Of a stretch of 64,000 bases of DNA, positions 3,634-64,000 are shown in pieces (position 1 is the first letter of the stretch; each line of letters begins with the position of its first letter). Source of the DNA: a virus. The notes beneath the pieces were generated by a model, which worked only from the letters and a program-made list of their open reading frames with translations, was not told the origin of the DNA and ran no database searches. The stretch is taken from positions 32,001 through 96,000 of IMG/VR virus record IMGVR_UViG_3300028197_001695. One strand, 5' to 3'. A program made the position numbers and the translations under genes.

Positions 3634-3659
3634 AATATTATATTAGTTAGAATTTTTTT

Positions 3660-5183
3660 TTAGTTTGTAACTTCTACAGAGAAGTTCTCCTTAAGTTTTT
3701 CAACCAAAGAAATTTGTTCACAGGCTTCAGCGTTATTGTTAGGCATAGAAGGAGCTTCCACCTCTTCAACTTCTAACTCATCTTCGCTAGCCTTAACTTC
3801 TTCCTGCTGCTCAGGAGCCTCCTCCGCCATCTTGGAGGCAATAGCCTCTTCGATTTTAGCTTTGACTACCTCTTCTTGAGCTGCAATAGACTCTTTGGTC
3901 TTGCTTGCAAAAAGAATAGAAAGTTTTCCTTTGAAGGTGTCGAAAGCCTCATCAGAAGCTTCAACAACCTTCAACTCATCTACGACCAACTTAAGCTCTG
4001 CTTCAGTAAGTTCGTATGTGGAGTCAATAAAGTTCATCCGAGAGTTAAATAACTCAACAGCAGCTTGAGCTTCCATCTCAGATTTGAGAGCGGAGAGTTC
4101 TGTCTGAACAGCATCAAAAGAGGCTTTCATTTCAGTCAGATCTGCTTCTACCTTCTCACGAGCTTCGGCTTCAAGTTGAACTTTAGATTTCCAGTTTTCG
4201 GAATGCTCATTCAGGGCATCACGCATAATCTCGCCAACAGAGCTGGCTTGATCGTCCTTCTTGACTACTGAAGCTACGCTTTCGGCAACTTGTGTCATTA
4301 GTGTTTCGAATTGTTCTTTATCCATATCAAAAATATCGAATTTGTTATCTGTTACAGTGGTTTTTCCTTTTAGGGAATTTTTAATAATAATATTATCTTG
4401 TTTTGCTAAAGAATTATCAACAGACTTTTCATTTTTTTGTTGTTCTGATGTATAAACTCCTTTAACCCTAGCTGCGGGTTTATATGTTAATGCGGCTCCT
4501 AAAGGATAAGTTTCACCATGTATCAGTCGATGAACTGGTGTGCCATCTTCATCTATACCTTTACCGCCAAAGCCTTTTACATATTGCTTAAGCTCCTCCT
4601 TCTTTGAACCTTCGGCAACTTCACACTCATCCAATCTATCCGATCCATAGACGACTTTATAGTTCTTAAATGCAAGCTCCCAGCTAGTAGCAATACTCTG
4701 ATATTCTTCATTCTCTTCTTTCGCGGCTGTTTCAATAGCTTCCGCTAACTCTGGAAAAATATTTTTATAAATTAAACCAGCAGCGTTAATATAAAATGGC
4801 TCCTCTTTGTTAACATATGATTCAATAGCATTATCTTTAAAATCATACTCCTCCATAGAGAAAGAAGCATTGATCATGTGGCCTACGATCTTATGCTTCT
4901 TGTGTTCAATGTTAATTGGCTTATTGATAAATCTTTTTACGGCTGCTACTGCTGTTTTAGAATCTATGCCATCACCGTTTTTGTTAAATTCGTTGACGAG
5001 GGCCAAGTTAAATACTACGGGCAATACATCTACATTCGCGGATGGGTCAAAGTCGTCAGGCAGTAAAGATTTAGCAGCTTCTGCAATAGATCCTTCTGAT
5101 ACTCCAAACTTTTCGTAATCAGCTTCTTTGAGAGCCTTGATGTTGCAATCAAAGCTACTTACCTCAAAATCTTTTAAATCCAT
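3660..5183 (-). CDS. Prohead protease with C-terminal scaffold
   Basis: N-terminal NKNGDGI...PINIEH...IVGH...TSWE motifs of phage maturation proteases; C-terminal acidic coiled coil; lies between portal and capsid. Confidence 0.75.
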   Translation of the reverse strand: MDLKDFEVSSFDCNIKALKEADYEKFGVSEGSIAEAAKSLLPDDFDPSANVDVLPVVFNLALVNEFNKNGDGIDSKTAVAAVKRFINKPINIEHKKHKIVGHMINASFSMEEYDFKDNAIESYVNKEEPFYINAAGLIYKNIFPELAEAIETAAKEENEEYQSIATSWELAFKNYKVVYGSDRLDECEVAEGSKKEELKQYVKGFGGKGIDEDGTPVHRLIHGETYPLGAALTYKPAARVKGVYTSEQQKNEKSVDNSLAKQDNIIIKNSLKGKTTVTDNKFDIFDMDKEQFETLMTQVAESVASVVKKDDQASSVGEIMRDALNEHSENWKSKVQLEAEAREKVEADLTEMKASFDAVQTELSALKSEMEAQAAVELFNSRMNFIDSTYELTEAELKLVVDELKVVEASDEAFDTFKGKLSILFASKTKESIAAQEEVVKAKIEEAIASKMAEEAPEQQEEVKASEDELEVEEVEAPSMPNNNAEACEQISLVEKLKENFSVEVTN

Positions 5184-5197
5184 AAAATGATATACAC

Positions 5198-7159
5198 TTA
5201 AATTTTAGTTGAGTGATATAAAATCGCAGAAGACATGTCATCGAGTTGATGTTTAGATCCTACATCTAGCACATCTGGAGAAACATTTAGTTCAGAAAGA
5301 TTATCTAAATTTTCCACAATGCTAGATAAAGTCTCGTCCCATTCACCTATCGGCTTAGAGACAATGATTGACTCACAAGCCTGAGAAACTAAATCTTTCC
5401 GCTCCTCGTCGAGTTCTTCTAAACCAAACTTAAGGGCAAAGTCGCGATAAGCTCTAAACTCAAATTCGCTAACCATTTGGGTGGCTTCAACAATATGTTT
5501 CTTTGAAAAGCTTGAGTTGGAAACTCCTATTGGGCGACCACCAGAAGGAGCTACAGGAGCAGCTTCGGGTTTAGCTTCTGGGGCAGATTCTTCTTCATTT
5601 TGGAAAAGGTTAATGCTATTTACTAGAGGCATGTAATAACCATCTTCCCTCTGCTCTTTAAACTTATCTTGAGCTGAAATTAATTCTTCTGCTTTGGGGA
5701 ATATTCCATTATGGACAACACTCATACCTTGTTCTGGCGTAAGAACTCCAAGTTCCATCATGCGAGTAGCAAGCTTGGTCATGTCAGAATTATCAAGAGT
5801 ATCTGTTTTAACAAACTTAACTTCTGGCCAAGAACGCATACCCGCAGCTTTGCAAATACGGCGTACCTCTGGCTGTAGGAAATCTTTAATAAATTGGCTA
5901 CGAGACTCTTCAAGACGCTGAATGAATATCTTCATCTTAAGTTGTCCATCTGCATATTTGTTATCTCCAAGGAGAACATTCTGAAGCCCTTCTTGAATGT
6001 CGCGGTTTAAAATTTCATATTTTTCCGGTCCAATTACTTTGCGAAGATCAGGAATAACAAAGTCAGCTTTTGTGGTATAATCAGATACAAGAACTCGCCC
6101 AACGCTTTGATTCTTGAAAATGTTTTGCATTGCAGCCAATGCTTTATGATTAACCCCACCCTTGTCTGGCTCTGCGCCCATCGTAACTAACAAAACAACA
6201 TTCTCAATAGAACGAGAAATGGCTTGGTCAATTTTTTTAAGTTCTAGTTTTTTATTGATGTCATCAAGGACAGAAAAAGCATATGGAACAGAAAGTGGCT
6301 CATAGTCCTGCTTCTTAGCAAACACAACATGTAATAGATCCGAAGATAATTTAATATAAAGACGCTCAGTAGTAGTGGCAGTATTATTTTGTATTCTTAC
6401 CTGAACATCTTCTGGCAAAGAGTTATACATCTCAATCTCATGGTCAGTTTTAGGGTCTTTAAGCCTAGAGATCTCATAAGGAGTAAGAACTTTAAAGTAT
6501 TGGAAGTCGTTAAAAGAAATAGAACCCTTTGTCGCAATATCAGTTGGGTTCATGATCAGATACTTGATTGGAATAGGCACACTCTTAGTCGCTCCATAAG
6601 TTTCCAAGATCCTTCCTGTATCAGCAGTTTTAATCTTACCGTCTAAACGATACATGAAGACGTTACCTGAGCGGTAGTATTCGCGGAAATATTGTGACTT
6701 AATATCGTGGATTTTAATTCTTTTAAACCAAGCGTTCACGAAGTTCCTAGCTTTTGCAGAACCCCCTTCTAAAAACAAATCAGAATCAGCGAAGTCAGAG
6801 AGCATGTCAATGGTACTTCTAAATGCTGGAACATTAAAGTAAGCCTTCTGACATAATTGAATAGCGTCACGGACATCCACAGAGTCACGAGAGTAATCAA
6901 ACGGAAGAAGTCCATCGTCGATATTTTTAAATCTATTTTTTGTATAGCTTTGAGAAATACTATTGGTTCTTGAACCTGAACGTTTTGTTGGCTCAGAAAG
7001 GCGAGAAGCAGTAGTTTCGTATAGAGACTCTCCGACTAACTCTGGAGAGAACTCCTCTGCTAAAGACTGATTAGTAATGTCTTCTAAATTGTGATTGAGG
7101 ACGGTGCTTTTAAACTTATTCCAATATTCAGACCGTTTTGTATACTTACGCTTTGCCAT
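5198..7159 (-). CDS. Portal protein
   Basis: 653 aa directly after TerL; AIQLCQKAYFNVPAFRSTIDM and VFAKKQDYEPLSVP segments resemble large-phage portals. Confidence 0.75.
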   Translation of the reverse strand: MAKRKYTKRSEYWNKFKSTVLNHNLEDITNQSLAEEFSPELVGESLYETTASRLSEPTKRSGSRTNSISQSYTKNRFKNIDDGLLPFDYSRDSVDVRDAIQLCQKAYFNVPAFRSTIDMLSDFADSDLFLEGGSAKARNFVNAWFKRIKIHDIKSQYFREYYRSGNVFMYRLDGKIKTADTGRILETYGATKSVPIPIKYLIMNPTDIATKGSISFNDFQYFKVLTPYEISRLKDPKTDHEIEMYNSLPEDVQVRIQNNTATTTERLYIKLSSDLLHVVFAKKQDYEPLSVPYAFSVLDDINKKLELKKIDQAISRSIENVVLLVTMGAEPDKGGVNHKALAAMQNIFKNQSVGRVLVSDYTTKADFVIPDLRKVIGPEKYEILNRDIQEGLQNVLLGDNKYADGQLKMKIFIQRLEESRSQFIKDFLQPEVRRICKAAGMRSWPEVKFVKTDTLDNSDMTKLATRMMELGVLTPEQGMSVVHNGIFPKAEELISAQDKFKEQREDGYYMPLVNSINLFQNEEESAPEAKPEAAPVAPSGGRPIGVSNSSFSKKHIVEATQMVSEFEFRAYRDFALKFGLEELDEERKDLVSQACESIIVSKPIGEWDETLSSIVENLDNLSELNVSPDVLDVGSKHQLDDMSSAILYHSTKI

Positions 7160-61198: not shown

Positions 61199-61208
61199 GT
61201 AAAATACA

Positions 61209-61235
61209 TTACACCAAAAAATGTTTTTTGTGTAT
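61209..61235. promoter_or_regulatory. Back-to-back GTGTAW putative late promoters
   Basis: GTGTAA on the minus strand at 61209-61214 and GTGTAT on the plus strand at 61230-61235, each about 10-11 nt from an ATG. Confidence 0.65.
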
Positions 61236-61246
61236 CTTATTTTAAG

Positions 61247-62467
61247 ATGGGTAAACATCGGAAAGACCTTACGGAAGCGAAAGCTTTTGCTGAAAAATAT
61301 TGTAATCCAGAAGATAGTAAAATCATCTCTGACTTAGACCGTCATGCAAGAGAAACAGCATGGGCTTTATTACAAAAAATTAAGCATTTAGAACAAAACT
61401 CTTGTGTTTGTGACGAGTGTGGTTCTGAAGTAGAAGACGAACCGGAAGAAGAGGTTAAAGTTGAAAAAAATAAAAACCAAGAAGTGAAGGCTGAAACCCC
61501 TGAAACTTCTACTATGGACAAGCTATCTGAAATAGCTGAAAAGAATAAAGATATTTTAGATAAAGCTGCGAAAGGCACAGCGGCTGTAGCAGCGGCTGGA
61601 GCGACAACTCAAACCGCAAGTGCAGCTACTGGGTTAACTGCTTTTGTACAAGAAACAGTTCAAAAAGTAGGGGCAATTGGAATGGCTGGCACTATGTCTA
61701 TAGGTAGTGGAGCCTACTTCCAAGCAAAAACCACCAAAGAAAAGGGGACTGAGATAGCTGTCGTAGCAGAGCAAGAACATAACGTATTTTCAAATTTAAA
61801 TGACTTTACTGAGACAACAATCGGATTCCAACCTTTTGGTGGTGTTACCGAAGCTATTGTAGAATATGCCGAAAAAGGTTATGGAGATGTTGTGGGTACG
61901 TCTGAAGAAGGCTACGAAGGAGGAGAAGGTGAAGAATCTGGTGGCGAAGAGGGAGAGGGCGAATCGTCAAATGAAGAAGCTTCTAACGAGGGAGAAGGAA
62001 ATGAAGGCGAACCTACAGAAGAAAACAATGAAGAAGGAGAAGGAGAAGGGGAAGGAAAGGCCGTTAAAGAAGAAGAATCTGTAGAAACCGAAGAGGAGAC
62101 AGAAGAAGAAAACGAAGGGGAAGAGACTGAAGAATCAGAAGAGGAATCTGAAGAAGAAGGAGAAGAGGAGGAACCCAAAGAAGAGGAGTCCGAAGAGGAA
62201 TCCGAAGAGGAATCCGAAGGGGAATCCAAAGAAGAGACCGAAGAAGAGACCGAAGAGGAGGAGTCTGAAGATGAGGGAGAAGAAGTGGAGGAAGAATCTG
62301 AAGAGGGTGAGCCTGAAGAAAAAGAGGAGACTGAAGAACAGTCGGAAGAGGGCGAAAAGAAAAAAACAGATATTGAGAATTCAGAAGAAACATTCGAACT
62401 AGAAGAAGATGATCAAGTCACTCAAGTCCCTGATGTGATTAAACTCCCTAACATGATAAGAAAATAA
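61247..62467 (+). CDS. Protein with central hydrophobic segment and very Glu-rich tail
   Basis: 406 aa; CxC-x2-C near the N-terminus; Ala/Gly/Thr-rich hydrophobic middle; about 170-aa low-complexity E/G/S tail. Confidence 0.75.
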   Translation: MGKHRKDLTEAKAFAEKYCNPEDSKIISDLDRHARETAWALLQKIKHLEQNSCVCDECGSEVEDEPEEEVKVEKNKNQEVKAETPETSTMDKLSEIAEKNKDILDKAAKGTAAVAAAGATTQTASAATGLTAFVQETVQKVGAIGMAGTMSIGSGAYFQAKTTKEKGTEIAVVAEQEHNVFSNLNDFTETTIGFQPFGGVTEAIVEYAEKGYGDVVGTSEEGYEGGEGEESGGEEGEGESSNEEASNEGEGNEGEPTEENNEEGEGEGEGKAVKEEESVETEEETEEENEGEETEESEEESEEEGEEEEPKEEESEEESEEESEGESKEETEEETEEEESEDEGEEVEEESEEGEPEEKEETEEQSEEGEKKKTDIENSEETFELEEDDQVTQVPDVIKLPNMIRK

Positions 62468-62472
62468 TTATT

Positions 62473-62664
62473 ATGGAAGATTTATTTGAAAAAATACTCG
62501 CTCCTTACATGGGGTCAATGCCTGAGTTCATTATTTCTATCTTGGGTTTGCTAGGGACTCTTTCTTATATTGTCCCTGAAAATAGTAAGCTGGGTAGGTT
62601 ATTAGGTAAGTTGACGGGGAATCTAACTAAACTTAAAAACTTTATACTAAAAAAGAAGAAATGA
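62473..62664 (+). CDS. Small membrane protein
   Basis: 63 aa, one TM, basic tail. Confidence 0.65.
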   Translation: MEDLFEKILAPYMGSMPEFIISILGLLGTLSYIVPENSKLGRLLGKLTGNLTKLKNFILKKKK

Positions 62665-63494
62665 AGCGCACACTCATAACTTTACTCTCAATTATTTCCG
62701 TAGCTAAATCTGCTATTATTACCTCTGTAGAAGGAAATGTATTCCTAATCAACCCTACAGAAAACCCTAATATCAACCCTGTAGTCAATATCCAAAGACC
62801 CATCCAGATCAGCAATGAGGAAGTTGTAGATATAACTGAAAGCGAAGATAAAAAAGAAGATTCAATTATTCCTTGGGATGCAGACGAAGAGGAAATTTAT
62901 GATTTTTATGATGCTCCTAATTGGGATTTTTCAGAATCAGACTTGAAAGAGTTAGATCGAGATTCTGCTATCACTAGCATATTGACTATAACAGATGCCT
63001 TAATACTTGAAGACAGTCCCTCTTATTCAAATATCGAGATTGGAGATGGGTTTTCAGTAACATTAAAGTCTACAGATTTTACTTTTCAAAAAAGCAATGG
63101 TTTCACTGGAGTAAATGATGATGATAATGTATATTCAGTTTTAAATATAACTGAAGGGTCTAGTATGTATGCCATGTTTACTTCAATTGGTCTAAAGGTA
63201 AATGTAGATTCAACTAGCAGTTTGACTCTACGGGGAGTTGGAGACCCAATCAATAGTCAAATAGAAAGATCTATCGTTAATTTGTCTCCAAACGCGCAGC
63301 TCACTCTAGATTCAATAGAGGAGTTTTCAGAACAGGGTGATGATATTTATTTGAATGGCGTATCGTTCTCCCAAAACCCTTCTATCTTGAAATTTAATGG
63401 AACTACTGCGACCGCTATTCCAGAAGCTTACTCAGCCCTGCTAAATGCTTTGCCTATAATTTTACTTTTAAGACGGAGGAATAGATTTAATTAA
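62661..63494 (+). CDS. Secreted protein with PEP-CTERM-like sorting signal
   Basis: N-terminal signal peptide MKRTLITLLSIISVAKS-A; C-terminal AIPEAYSALLNALPIILLLRRRNRFN (PE motif, TM helix, Arg cluster). Confidence 0.8.
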   Translation: MKRTLITLLSIISVAKSAIITSVEGNVFLINPTENPNINPVVNIQRPIQISNEEVVDITESEDKKEDSIIPWDADEEEIYDFYDAPNWDFSESDLKELDRDSAITSILTITDALILEDSPSYSNIEIGDGFSVTLKSTDFTFQKSNGFTGVNDDDNVYSVLNITEGSSMYAMFTSIGLKVNVDSTSSLTLRGVGDPINSQIERSIVNLSPNAQLTLDSIEEFSEQGDDIYLNGVSFSQNPSILKFNGTTATAIPEAYSALLNALPIILLLRRRNRFN

Positions 63495-63739
63495 TCAAAA
63501 AGTTCTCTCTCTAGTTTCCTGAAGCGAGCATCTGAATGCCAAACCTCATCTATCTGAGGGGTGTAAACCCCTTCTTCAGTCTGAATCGGTTGACCCGCCT
63601 TGAGCTTTAATGAAGACGGTTGATATATGTTCAAAGTCGTCGTTTTCGGATTTGAGACGCTTCCGCAAGAGGTCAGCCCGATCAGAGGAGTTACTATCGC
63701 CAGCAGCCCGTAATTCTTCAATTTCGTTAATGAGTTCAT
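63491..63739 (-). CDS. Lipoprotein, candidate o-spanin
   Basis: Signal peptide II with lipobox LTSC; overlaps the upstream gene by 164 nt in another frame. Confidence 0.6.
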   Translation of the reverse strand: MNSLTKLKNYGLLAIVTPLIGLTSCGSVSNPKTTTLNIYQPSSLKLKAGQPIQTEEGVYTPQIDEVWHSDARFRKLERELFD

Positions 63740-63842
63740 TTTTTATGTTTCTATGTTGATTTTTTATTTCAAAAAAAGCCAATCTATTCCTTAATTCAAG
63801 GTAAAGCTGTAGGCTCTTAGCTAGAGTTTTAATTAAAGACAT
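63576..63842 (-). CDS. Helical protein, candidate i-spanin partner
   Basis: Start set to ATG 63842 (GTGTAT at 63857-63862); amphipathic N-terminus and coiled coil. Confidence 0.5.
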   Translation of the reverse strand: MSLIKTLAKSLQLYLELRNRLAFFEIKNQHRNIKNELINEIEELRAAGDSNSSDRADLLRKRLKSENDDFEHISTVFIKAQGGSTDSD

Positions 63843-63852
63843 TATTCTTATT

Positions 63853-64000
63853 CTATATACACTCCAAAACCTGTTTCCACTCCATATCTCCAATCACAGA
63901 CGTTAACTTTGTGATATCTGCTTGAGTGAATTTTTGATATTGCCCTTTTAGTTTTTCTGGCATCGCGATCTGTTTCACTTTCGCTCCAGAGTTTTCTGCC
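63853..64000 (-). CDS. hldD: ADP-L-glycero-D-manno-heptose 6-epimerase, C-terminal part (cut by right edge)
   Basis: Not in the ORF track: ...IAMPEKLKGQYQKFTQADITKL...*, matching the RfaD/HldD C-terminal P..LKG.YQ.FTQAD...L motif. Confidence 0.8.
   Translation of the reverse strand, partial: AENSGAKVKQIAMPEKLKGQYQKFTQADITKLTSVIGDMEWKQVLECI

Follow-up and report, generated by a model that had tools for sequence, protein, structure and literature searches.

A secreted beta-helix protein with a C-terminal tail derived from the PEP-CTERM sorting signal is encoded in a 64,000-nucleotide stretch of viral DNA (the window; positions 32001-96000 of the IMG/VR record IMGVR_UViG_3300028197_001695). The gene (P0001) lies on the plus strand at 62661..63494, with its stop codon at 63492-63494, and its product has 277 amino acids (aa). 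Our analysis leans modestly toward the explanation that this is a beta-helix gene captured by the phage from Verrucomicrobiales and since diverged, and that its tail is most likely read by the exosortase of the host, remodeling the surface of the infected cell.

The record behind the window is linear, 118 kb long and an estimated 89% complete, and contains a large terminase gene, tail-fiber-like genes and 2 tRNAs. Since its terminase is at most 27% identical to any GenBank phage terminase, the source of the window is an uncultured tailed phage. The reading frame at 62661-63494 is open throughout, and translation confirmed both termini described in an earlier note on this DNA, i.e., a signal peptide and an IPEA-transmembrane (TM)-Arg tail. 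Close homologues, 74-87% identical, form ~170 clusters (90% identity) in marine metagenomes including Tara, and IMG/VR holds 41 loci with homologues of the protein; one homologue (P0090) is located on a 69-kb contig from a metagenome-assembled genome (MAG) labelled Akkermansiaceae. Given this number of clusters, and given that all 29 distinct full-length alleles keep the layout of the tail, the open reading frame (ORF) and its tail are not due to chance. Scans of the 277-aa protein against Pfam, NCBIfam and PHROG gave no match, and neither did tblastn against 50,697 GenBank phage records. It is well supported that this phage gene is real, widespread and under strong selection.

The protein is composed of four parts, all encoded on the plus strand. 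Residues 1-18 (62661..62714), consisting of MKR, a hydrophobic core and AKSA, form a signal peptide as identified by inspection and hydropathy; the mean Kyte-Doolittle (KD) value of this region is 1.85-2.08, and the two most hydrophobic 13-aa segments of the whole protein are the N-terminal and the C-terminal ones. The alleles show three versions of this region, each of signal-peptide type, and the signal peptides of cellular homologues align with the N-terminus of the phage protein in an alignment of 39 family members (alignment A2). It is followed by a linker of ~50 residues specific to the phage clade (62715..62864), Asn/Pro-rich and then acidic, which was delimited from alignment A2, the predicted local distance difference test (pLDDT) and the ratio of nonsynonymous to synonymous substitution rates (dN/dS). 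The linker is absent from the cellular homologues and from a short phage form (L037/P0121). The beta-helix, or beta-solenoid, body (residues 69-252; 62865..63416) was assigned from AlphaFold2, VIA-align and phmmer, and is the part homologous to Verrucomicrobiales PEP-CTERM proteins. The tail (63417..63491), recognized by alignment and dN/dS, resembles a sorting signal and comprises IPE (63417-63425), a variable residue 256, a 14-residue hydrophobic helix, RRRNR and FN, so that the C-terminus reads ...TATA-IPEA-YSALLNALPIILLL-RRRNR-FN. The number of NP-x-x-NP repeats in the linker varies among alleles, with extra NPTE or NPVV units in P0061 and P0104.

According to Haft et al. 2006 (PMC1569441), a nearly invariant Pro-Glu-Pro opens the PEP-CTERM signal and is followed by 14 hydrophobic residues and a basic region of five residues. 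The geometry of the phage tail matches this definition exactly, save for Ala in place of the second Pro, which makes the motif I-P-E-A: the hydrophobic stretch has 14 residues (mean KD 2.01) and is followed by RRRNR, with 2 residues to the end, and AlphaFold2 places a helix at residues 258-275. The N-terminal signal peptide of PEP-CTERM proteins is present as well, as judged by sequence inspection and hydropathy. Export combined with an anchor-type tail is a well-supported architecture for this protein.

The relatives of the protein identify the origin of the tail. They form a family of ~215-260-aa secreted proteins of Verrucomicrobiales, for which an exhaustive phmmer search returned 61 representatives at 50% clustering, with E-values of 1e-49 to 1e-10 for 38 further representatives besides the two closest. 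A scan of species-representative genomes found 2 chromosomal copies, in Verrucomicrobiales/Verrucomicrobiota MAGs (L002 9941-10687 and L003 9881-10591); these encode 248 and 236 aa with a signal peptide, a body 51-56% identical to that of the phage, and a tail of VPEL or VPEP, respectively, followed by a Gly/Ala/Leu helix and RRRK. Among 301 sampled genomes of Verrucomicrobiales the family was present in 13, with best matches 54-58% identical, and all members checked in this sample end in [VI]PEP. Overall, the closest chromosomal relatives (L002, L003, L049, L050; 228-248 aa) are 51-58% identical to the phage protein and share its body, its order of parts and the placement of the sorting motif after the last T-x-T-A strand, but their tails are of the type VPEP-SS-G/A/L helix-RRRK and they have no 50-residue linker. 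Nearly all cellular proteins in alignment A2 end in [VI]PEP-S..-RRRK, and the phage I-P-E-x sits on the cellular [VI]PEP. The alignment runs unbroken from the homologous body into the cellular [VI]PEP-TM-RRRK, and phmmer alignments extend to query residue 273-275. Judged from this continuity, the phage tail has genuinely evolved from a PEP-CTERM signal, in agreement with the earlier note, and descent of the gene from a Verrucomicrobiales PEP-CTERM protein is well supported.

In a maximum-likelihood tree of 49 proteins, rooted at the midpoint only, the 14 phage rows constituted one clade (100/100) on a long stem (0.56), nested in a cellular family of much greater diversity, next to the lineage with the groEL-adjacent genes (98/97). 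A single old capture from a Verrucomicrobiales host would be the simplest reading of this topology; its age is suggested by the GC (guanine plus cytosine) content, which is 35% in the phage gene and 46-50% in the cellular genes, with 38% for the phage as a whole. In both MAGs (L002 and L003), the orthologue lies in a conserved neighborhood between groEL and a gene for a 1300-aa secreted protein with Lamin-tail (LTD) domains and a CotH kinase domain (L002 10765-14673; L003 10669-14574).

The verrucomicrobial connection proposed in the earlier note is supported, since the nearest cellular relatives come from Verrucomicrobiales whose genomes encode an exosortase. In both genomes with the closest chromosomal copies, the enzyme was identified with TIGR02602 (136.6 and 134.5 bits against a cut-off of 105.55). 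An EpsI-like gene follows the exosortase in one of them (G001), and the other (G002) has an ORF of the same size at the same place; one of the two also encodes a second, XrtQ-like enzyme. With TIGR02595, 22 and 26 matches were obtained in the two genomes, most of them located in ORFs of 210-290 aa. No exosortase was found in the phage record. One RNA-library contig has its match to the window confined to the conserved DFYD..NWDFS stretch (loose ends at 62899 and 62932), and continues on both sides with sequence that seemingly encodes the cellular type of the protein; a host-type gene may therefore occur in the same marine sample as the phage.

Several results weigh against the explanation that an exosortase reads the phage tail. 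The profile hidden Markov model (HMM) check that the earlier note had set for its own proposal, a search of the protein with PF07589 and TIGR02595, was negative even at E ≤ 10, which by the standard of the note would refute the proposal, and the isolated tail gave nothing at E ≤ 10 against NCBIfam, which includes TIGR02595 and models of other C-terminal sorting signals. Of the 29 alleles, 28 lack the near-invariant second Pro, and the phage helix is rich in Ile/Leu/Pro/Ser rather than Gly/Ala/Leu. When a family-tail HMM was built from 35 cellular tails, the tail encoded in the window scored 12.9 bits, above the best of 2000 shuffles (9.2) and the best of 575 decoys (6.1), but most other phage alleles scored 3-7 bits, no better than shuffles, and the sequence of the tail alone is therefore unusable as evidence for the clade. 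A literature search found no experimental rule for what exosortases require of their substrates, and the Verrucomicrobiales host is one that we infer from the relatives rather than know. A weak hint of expression, which speaks for the explanation, comes from contigs of a marine metatranscriptome library that are identical to 62789-63145, and two further RNA-type libraries contain 85-95% relatives of the junction between the beta-helix gene and the 63-aa gene that precedes it; these contigs are compatible with DNA carry-over. Most of the RNA-library coverage falls on low-complexity Glu-rich repeats and is uninformative, and the uncovered parts prove nothing.

The failure of the PEP-CTERM models is a weak criterion, because a single substitution of the second Pro is enough to lose both of them. 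The chromosomal orthologue ending in VPEP (L003) scores above the cut-offs of PF07589 (30 against 20.7 bits) and TIGR02595 (20.8 against 16), while the orthologue ending in VPEL (L002) fails both. TIGR02595 matches 19 of the 39 family members in alignment A2, and three cellular members likewise have no second Pro (VPEL, VPES, VPEV). A six-frame scan of the entire 118-kb record with TIGR02595 gave nothing at the ORF 62661-63494. The protein thus falls outside the PEP-CTERM class by two defining features, the HMM and the P-E-P, and stands as a homologue and likely functional analogue of its members.

The same observations can be read as decay of the signal. The tail would then be a plain C-terminal membrane anchor, with the beta-helix periplasmic and tethered to the inner membrane, where it would aid envelope- or lysis-related functions together with two phage membrane proteins encoded upstream. 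The failure of all PEP-CTERM HMMs, the loss of the second Pro and the changed composition of the helix fit such an anchor, as do the coupling of the gene to a phage-specific 63-aa TM protein and the presence of other envelope proteins nearby, namely a TM protein listed with 124 aa and an 82-aa lipoprotein. We nevertheless consider a plain anchor rather unlikely on the basis of the pattern of selection described below.

The 29 distinct full-length phage alleles were codon-aligned, and dN/dS was calculated for each part of the protein. The values were 0.089 for the body, 0.22 for the signal peptide, 0.27 for the phage-specific linker, 0.20 for the hydrophobic helix and 0.24 for the basic end. 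The stretch T-x-T-A-I-P-E is under strong purifying selection: with a dN/dS of 0.005 at a dS of 0.94 it is the most constrained stretch of the protein, and it is invariant in all 29 alleles. The position directly after IPE, which corresponds to the second Pro of PEP, is hypervariable (A in 13 alleles, V in 5, I in 5, S in 4, F in 1 and P in 1); the allele that still reads IPEP is L033. In every allele IPE is followed by 15-17 uncharged residues and then by 2-4 Arg/Lys. The statement of the earlier note that PEP had drifted to PEA does not hold as worded: the Ala is no quirk of a single allele, as the whole phage clade has freed the position and kept I-P-E invariant. Between the last strand (T-x-T-A) and [VI]PEP, the cellular relatives have a linker of variable length (0-4 residues), which puts the motif outside the fold of the body. 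For a motif outside the fold to stay invariant in the phage clade, a partner that recognizes it would be required. A plain anchor leaves unexplained why I-P-E, which belongs neither to the fold nor to the helix, does not vary at this dS when the next three residues are free.

A different partner relationship was considered in which the phage protein acts as an exosortase decoy, i.e., IPE docks to the enzyme, the substrate without its second Pro is not resolved, and PEP-CTERM sorting of the host is blocked during infection. The invariance of I-P-E with clade-wide release of the neighboring Pro position would suit a decoy, and a block would have a large effect in candidate hosts with 22-26 PEP-CTERM proteins. 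The three cellular members without the second Pro suggest that ordinary substrates tolerate its loss, one phage allele retains IPEP, and the dN/dS of the body suggests that the body has a job of its own; we regard a decoy as very unlikely. Recognition of the tail as an ordinary sorting signal remains our preferred explanation, with about even odds that a host exosortase still reads it.

According to this explanation, the protein would be exported during infection by Sec through its signal peptide, and the C-terminal helix with its basic cluster would hold it in the cytoplasmic membrane. The host exosortase would most likely recognize the invariant T-A-I-P-E, and the beta-helix with its phage-specific N-terminal linker would be passed on to the cell surface or the exopolysaccharide layer. 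A final location at the cell surface or in the slime layer, and a role in surface remodeling, are what we infer from this route; the altered surface could mask receptors, exclude other phages or change aggregation. The beta-helix protein would be made together with the two phage-specific membrane proteins from one conserved cassette.

The cassette consists of three genes on the plus strand, of which the beta-helix gene is the last. The first (61247..62467) is syntenic in related contigs; its 406-aa product, which has only weak family matches, contains a hydrophobic stretch rich in Ala/Gly/Thr and a tail of ~170 residues that is rich in Glu. The second (62473..62664) encodes the 63-aa single-TM protein, and its stop overlaps the start of the beta-helix gene (ATGA). 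The earlier note had described a three-gene unit with a Glu-rich and a small TM protein, and the gene order is indeed kept in every related contig that reaches far enough (~30 contigs). Of the three products, the 63-aa protein is the best conserved, with 90-100% identity except in L033 and L037 (66-67%). Its homologues are confined to this phage lineage (24 clusters, all at least 65% identical), and it has no family match. The cellular orthologues of the beta-helix protein lack partner genes resembling the two phage membrane proteins.

One related contig, L037 (IMGVR_UViG_3300031851_005931), is informative for the mode of evolution of the cassette. When its positions 3650-5410 were compared with 61247-63494 of the window, the cassette was 52-67% identical, whereas the flanks were 93-96% identical; its beta-helix protein is the 227-aa short form without the 50-residue linker. 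This difference suggests either exchange of the cassette or a faster evolution than that of the flanking DNA, a behavior typical of host-interaction modules.

The one notable element upstream of the cassette is an inverted repeat (61200..61244) with arms of 21 nucleotides that are 81% complementary; it occupies the 48-nucleotide divergent intergenic region that separates the cassette from the gene of the TM protein listed with 124 aa. Its half-sites, TTACAC and GTGTA(A/T), are conserved in 17 related contigs and the spacer varies, and for this reason the repeat looks like an operator. The late-type motif that the earlier note had placed ahead of the cassette could not be identified: no recurring element was found, and the full 25-nucleotide palindrome (at most 3 mismatches) recurs nowhere else in the window. 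Scans for sigma-70 promoters and terminators returned fewer sites than in shuffles, and none that frame the cassette. The nearby TM protein listed with 124 aa has ~104 aa when read from its likely start at an internal Met (~61198, not 61258).

To characterize the fold of the body, an AlphaFold2 model of the 277-aa protein was built with the family alignment. The mean pLDDT was 84.6, with block means of 88 for residues 71-80 and 93-99 for residues 81-250; in the linker, which is disordered, it was ~46-59 over residues 19-60 and reached ~72 by residue 68. A Foldseek search of the model against PDB found nothing below an E-value of 1e-3, and the family profile had no significant match among PDB sequences. 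In an exhaustive VIA-align search of the model the best structures were right-handed beta-helices, with Z scores of 10.1 for TibA, 9.5 for an adhesin C-domain, 8.9 for Pet, 8.7 for the yeast adhesin Awp1 and 7.9 for Ag43, and of 6-8 for tailspikes and pectate lyases. In the model, the body takes the form of a short, adhesin-passenger-type beta-solenoid, and the Z scores are near the level of generic beta-helices, from which no function can be derived.

The passengers of TibA, Ag43 and Pet are surface-exposed proteins of the self-associating adhesin type from diderm bacteria. The phage protein shares with the autotransporter passengers TibA (4q1q), Ag43 (7koh) and Pet (4om9) a right-handed beta-helix of similar cross-section, which superimposes with a root-mean-square deviation of 2.7-4.0 over 119-143 residues. 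The identity is only 7-17%, which amounts to no sequence similarity, and Z scores of 8-10 are near background for generic beta-helices. In contrast to the passengers, the phage protein ends in a single TM helix and has no beta-barrel translocator, i.e., its route of anchoring and export is a different one.

Beta-helices are found in tailspikes as well, which raises the alternative that the protein is part of the virion, as a small fiber or spike. A tail-fiber block adjoins, the neighbors of the cassette on the opposite strand are structural or fiber-like, and the Z scores to phage tailspikes reach 7-8. Those matches are generic for the fold, and the protein has no PHROG match. The protein carries a signal peptide and a C-terminal TM/basic tail, lies on the other strand in a cassette of its own, and has cellular PEP-CTERM proteins rather than phage fibers as relatives, all of which makes a virion component barely credible.

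Within the exosortase explanation, a more specific variant was considered, according to which the cassette belongs to a program of glycocalyx rebuilding. The beta-helix protein, sent out by the exosortase with only (T-A-)I-P-E mattering, would be a scaffold that is glycosylated by the sugar machinery of the phage, which comprises an ADP-heptose pathway, a GT9-family transferase encoded elsewhere in the record, sulfotransferases and further glycosyltransferases. TibA, to which the body has its best structural match, is a heptosylated adhesin. We consider this variant quite unlikely; if true, natural variation would provide evidence that exosortases recognize their signal without the second Pro of PEP. 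Outside the window, a 369-aa ORF (G000:C1:13373-14482; L055 1261-2370) matches Glyco_transf_9, a heptosyltransferase family, with 32.4 bits against a cut-off of 22. Sequence comparison found no relative of this ORF among solved structures that would place it with TibC-like or with WaaC/WaaF-like enzymes. An epimerase-like gene lies just past the right end of the window (L054 454-1254, minus strand). Based on the GT9-like ORF, the ADP-heptose genes and the epimerase-like gene, the phage may both make and transfer heptose.

Compared with the known PEP-CTERM/exosortase (EpsH, XrtA) system, the phage protein has the signal peptide and the tripartite tail with the same geometry, it is homologous to proteins that pass the models, and its closest cellular lineages encode an exosortase, with the EpsI-like neighbor shown for one of them. 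It differs in its motif, as P-E-P is replaced by (T-A-)I-P-E-x with the fourth position free, and in a Gly-poor helix that the models do not see, and the phage has no exosortase of its own. The flocculation-associated PepA of Zoogloea (NF033554) is likewise a small secreted PEP-CTERM protein. Eighteen of the 39 family members have weak full-length matches to this model (best 7.7e-07), and L003 scores 24.6 bits over positions 52-259 of the 261-position profile; the cellular relatives reach at most ~25 bits against a cut-off of 80, and the phage protein has no match. The relation to PepA is therefore a resemblance of type, not membership.

A literature search for PEP-CTERM cargo in tailed phages brought up no such case, and only a passing mention for a mobile element of Dehalococcoides. 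What is specific to the present case is a non-canonical tag that is invisible to HMMs and comes with a natural record of mutations, an identifiable donor lineage and a fixed three-gene cassette. The findings tie an abundant lineage of uncultured marine phages to Verrucomicrobiales as a host prediction; to our knowledge, very few phages of this order are known. The 29 alleles represent a natural mutational scan of an exosortase signal, with I-P-E frozen and the second Pro free, and thereby bear on how exosortases recognize their substrates. Censuses of PEP-CTERM proteins that are based on HMMs miss diverged homologous tails, and phage-borne exosortase cargo is therefore probably under-counted. 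The fixed cassette with its two phage-only membrane proteins is a candidate module for envelope remodeling or superinfection exclusion, and we know of no comparable module in this diderm phylum.

Downstream of the cassette, the 82-aa lipoprotein with an L-T-S-C lipobox is encoded on the minus strand (63491-63739), convergent with the beta-helix gene. A 105-aa ORF (63576-63893, minus strand) overlaps its gene in another frame, and the pair is Rz/Rz1-like. Their assignment as a spanin pair in a lysis block was not supported, since no endolysin or holin adjoins. The lipoprotein may instead be another envelope or exclusion factor; the next genes beyond it encode an epimerase-like protein, a 324-aa protein and a ClpC-like ATPase.

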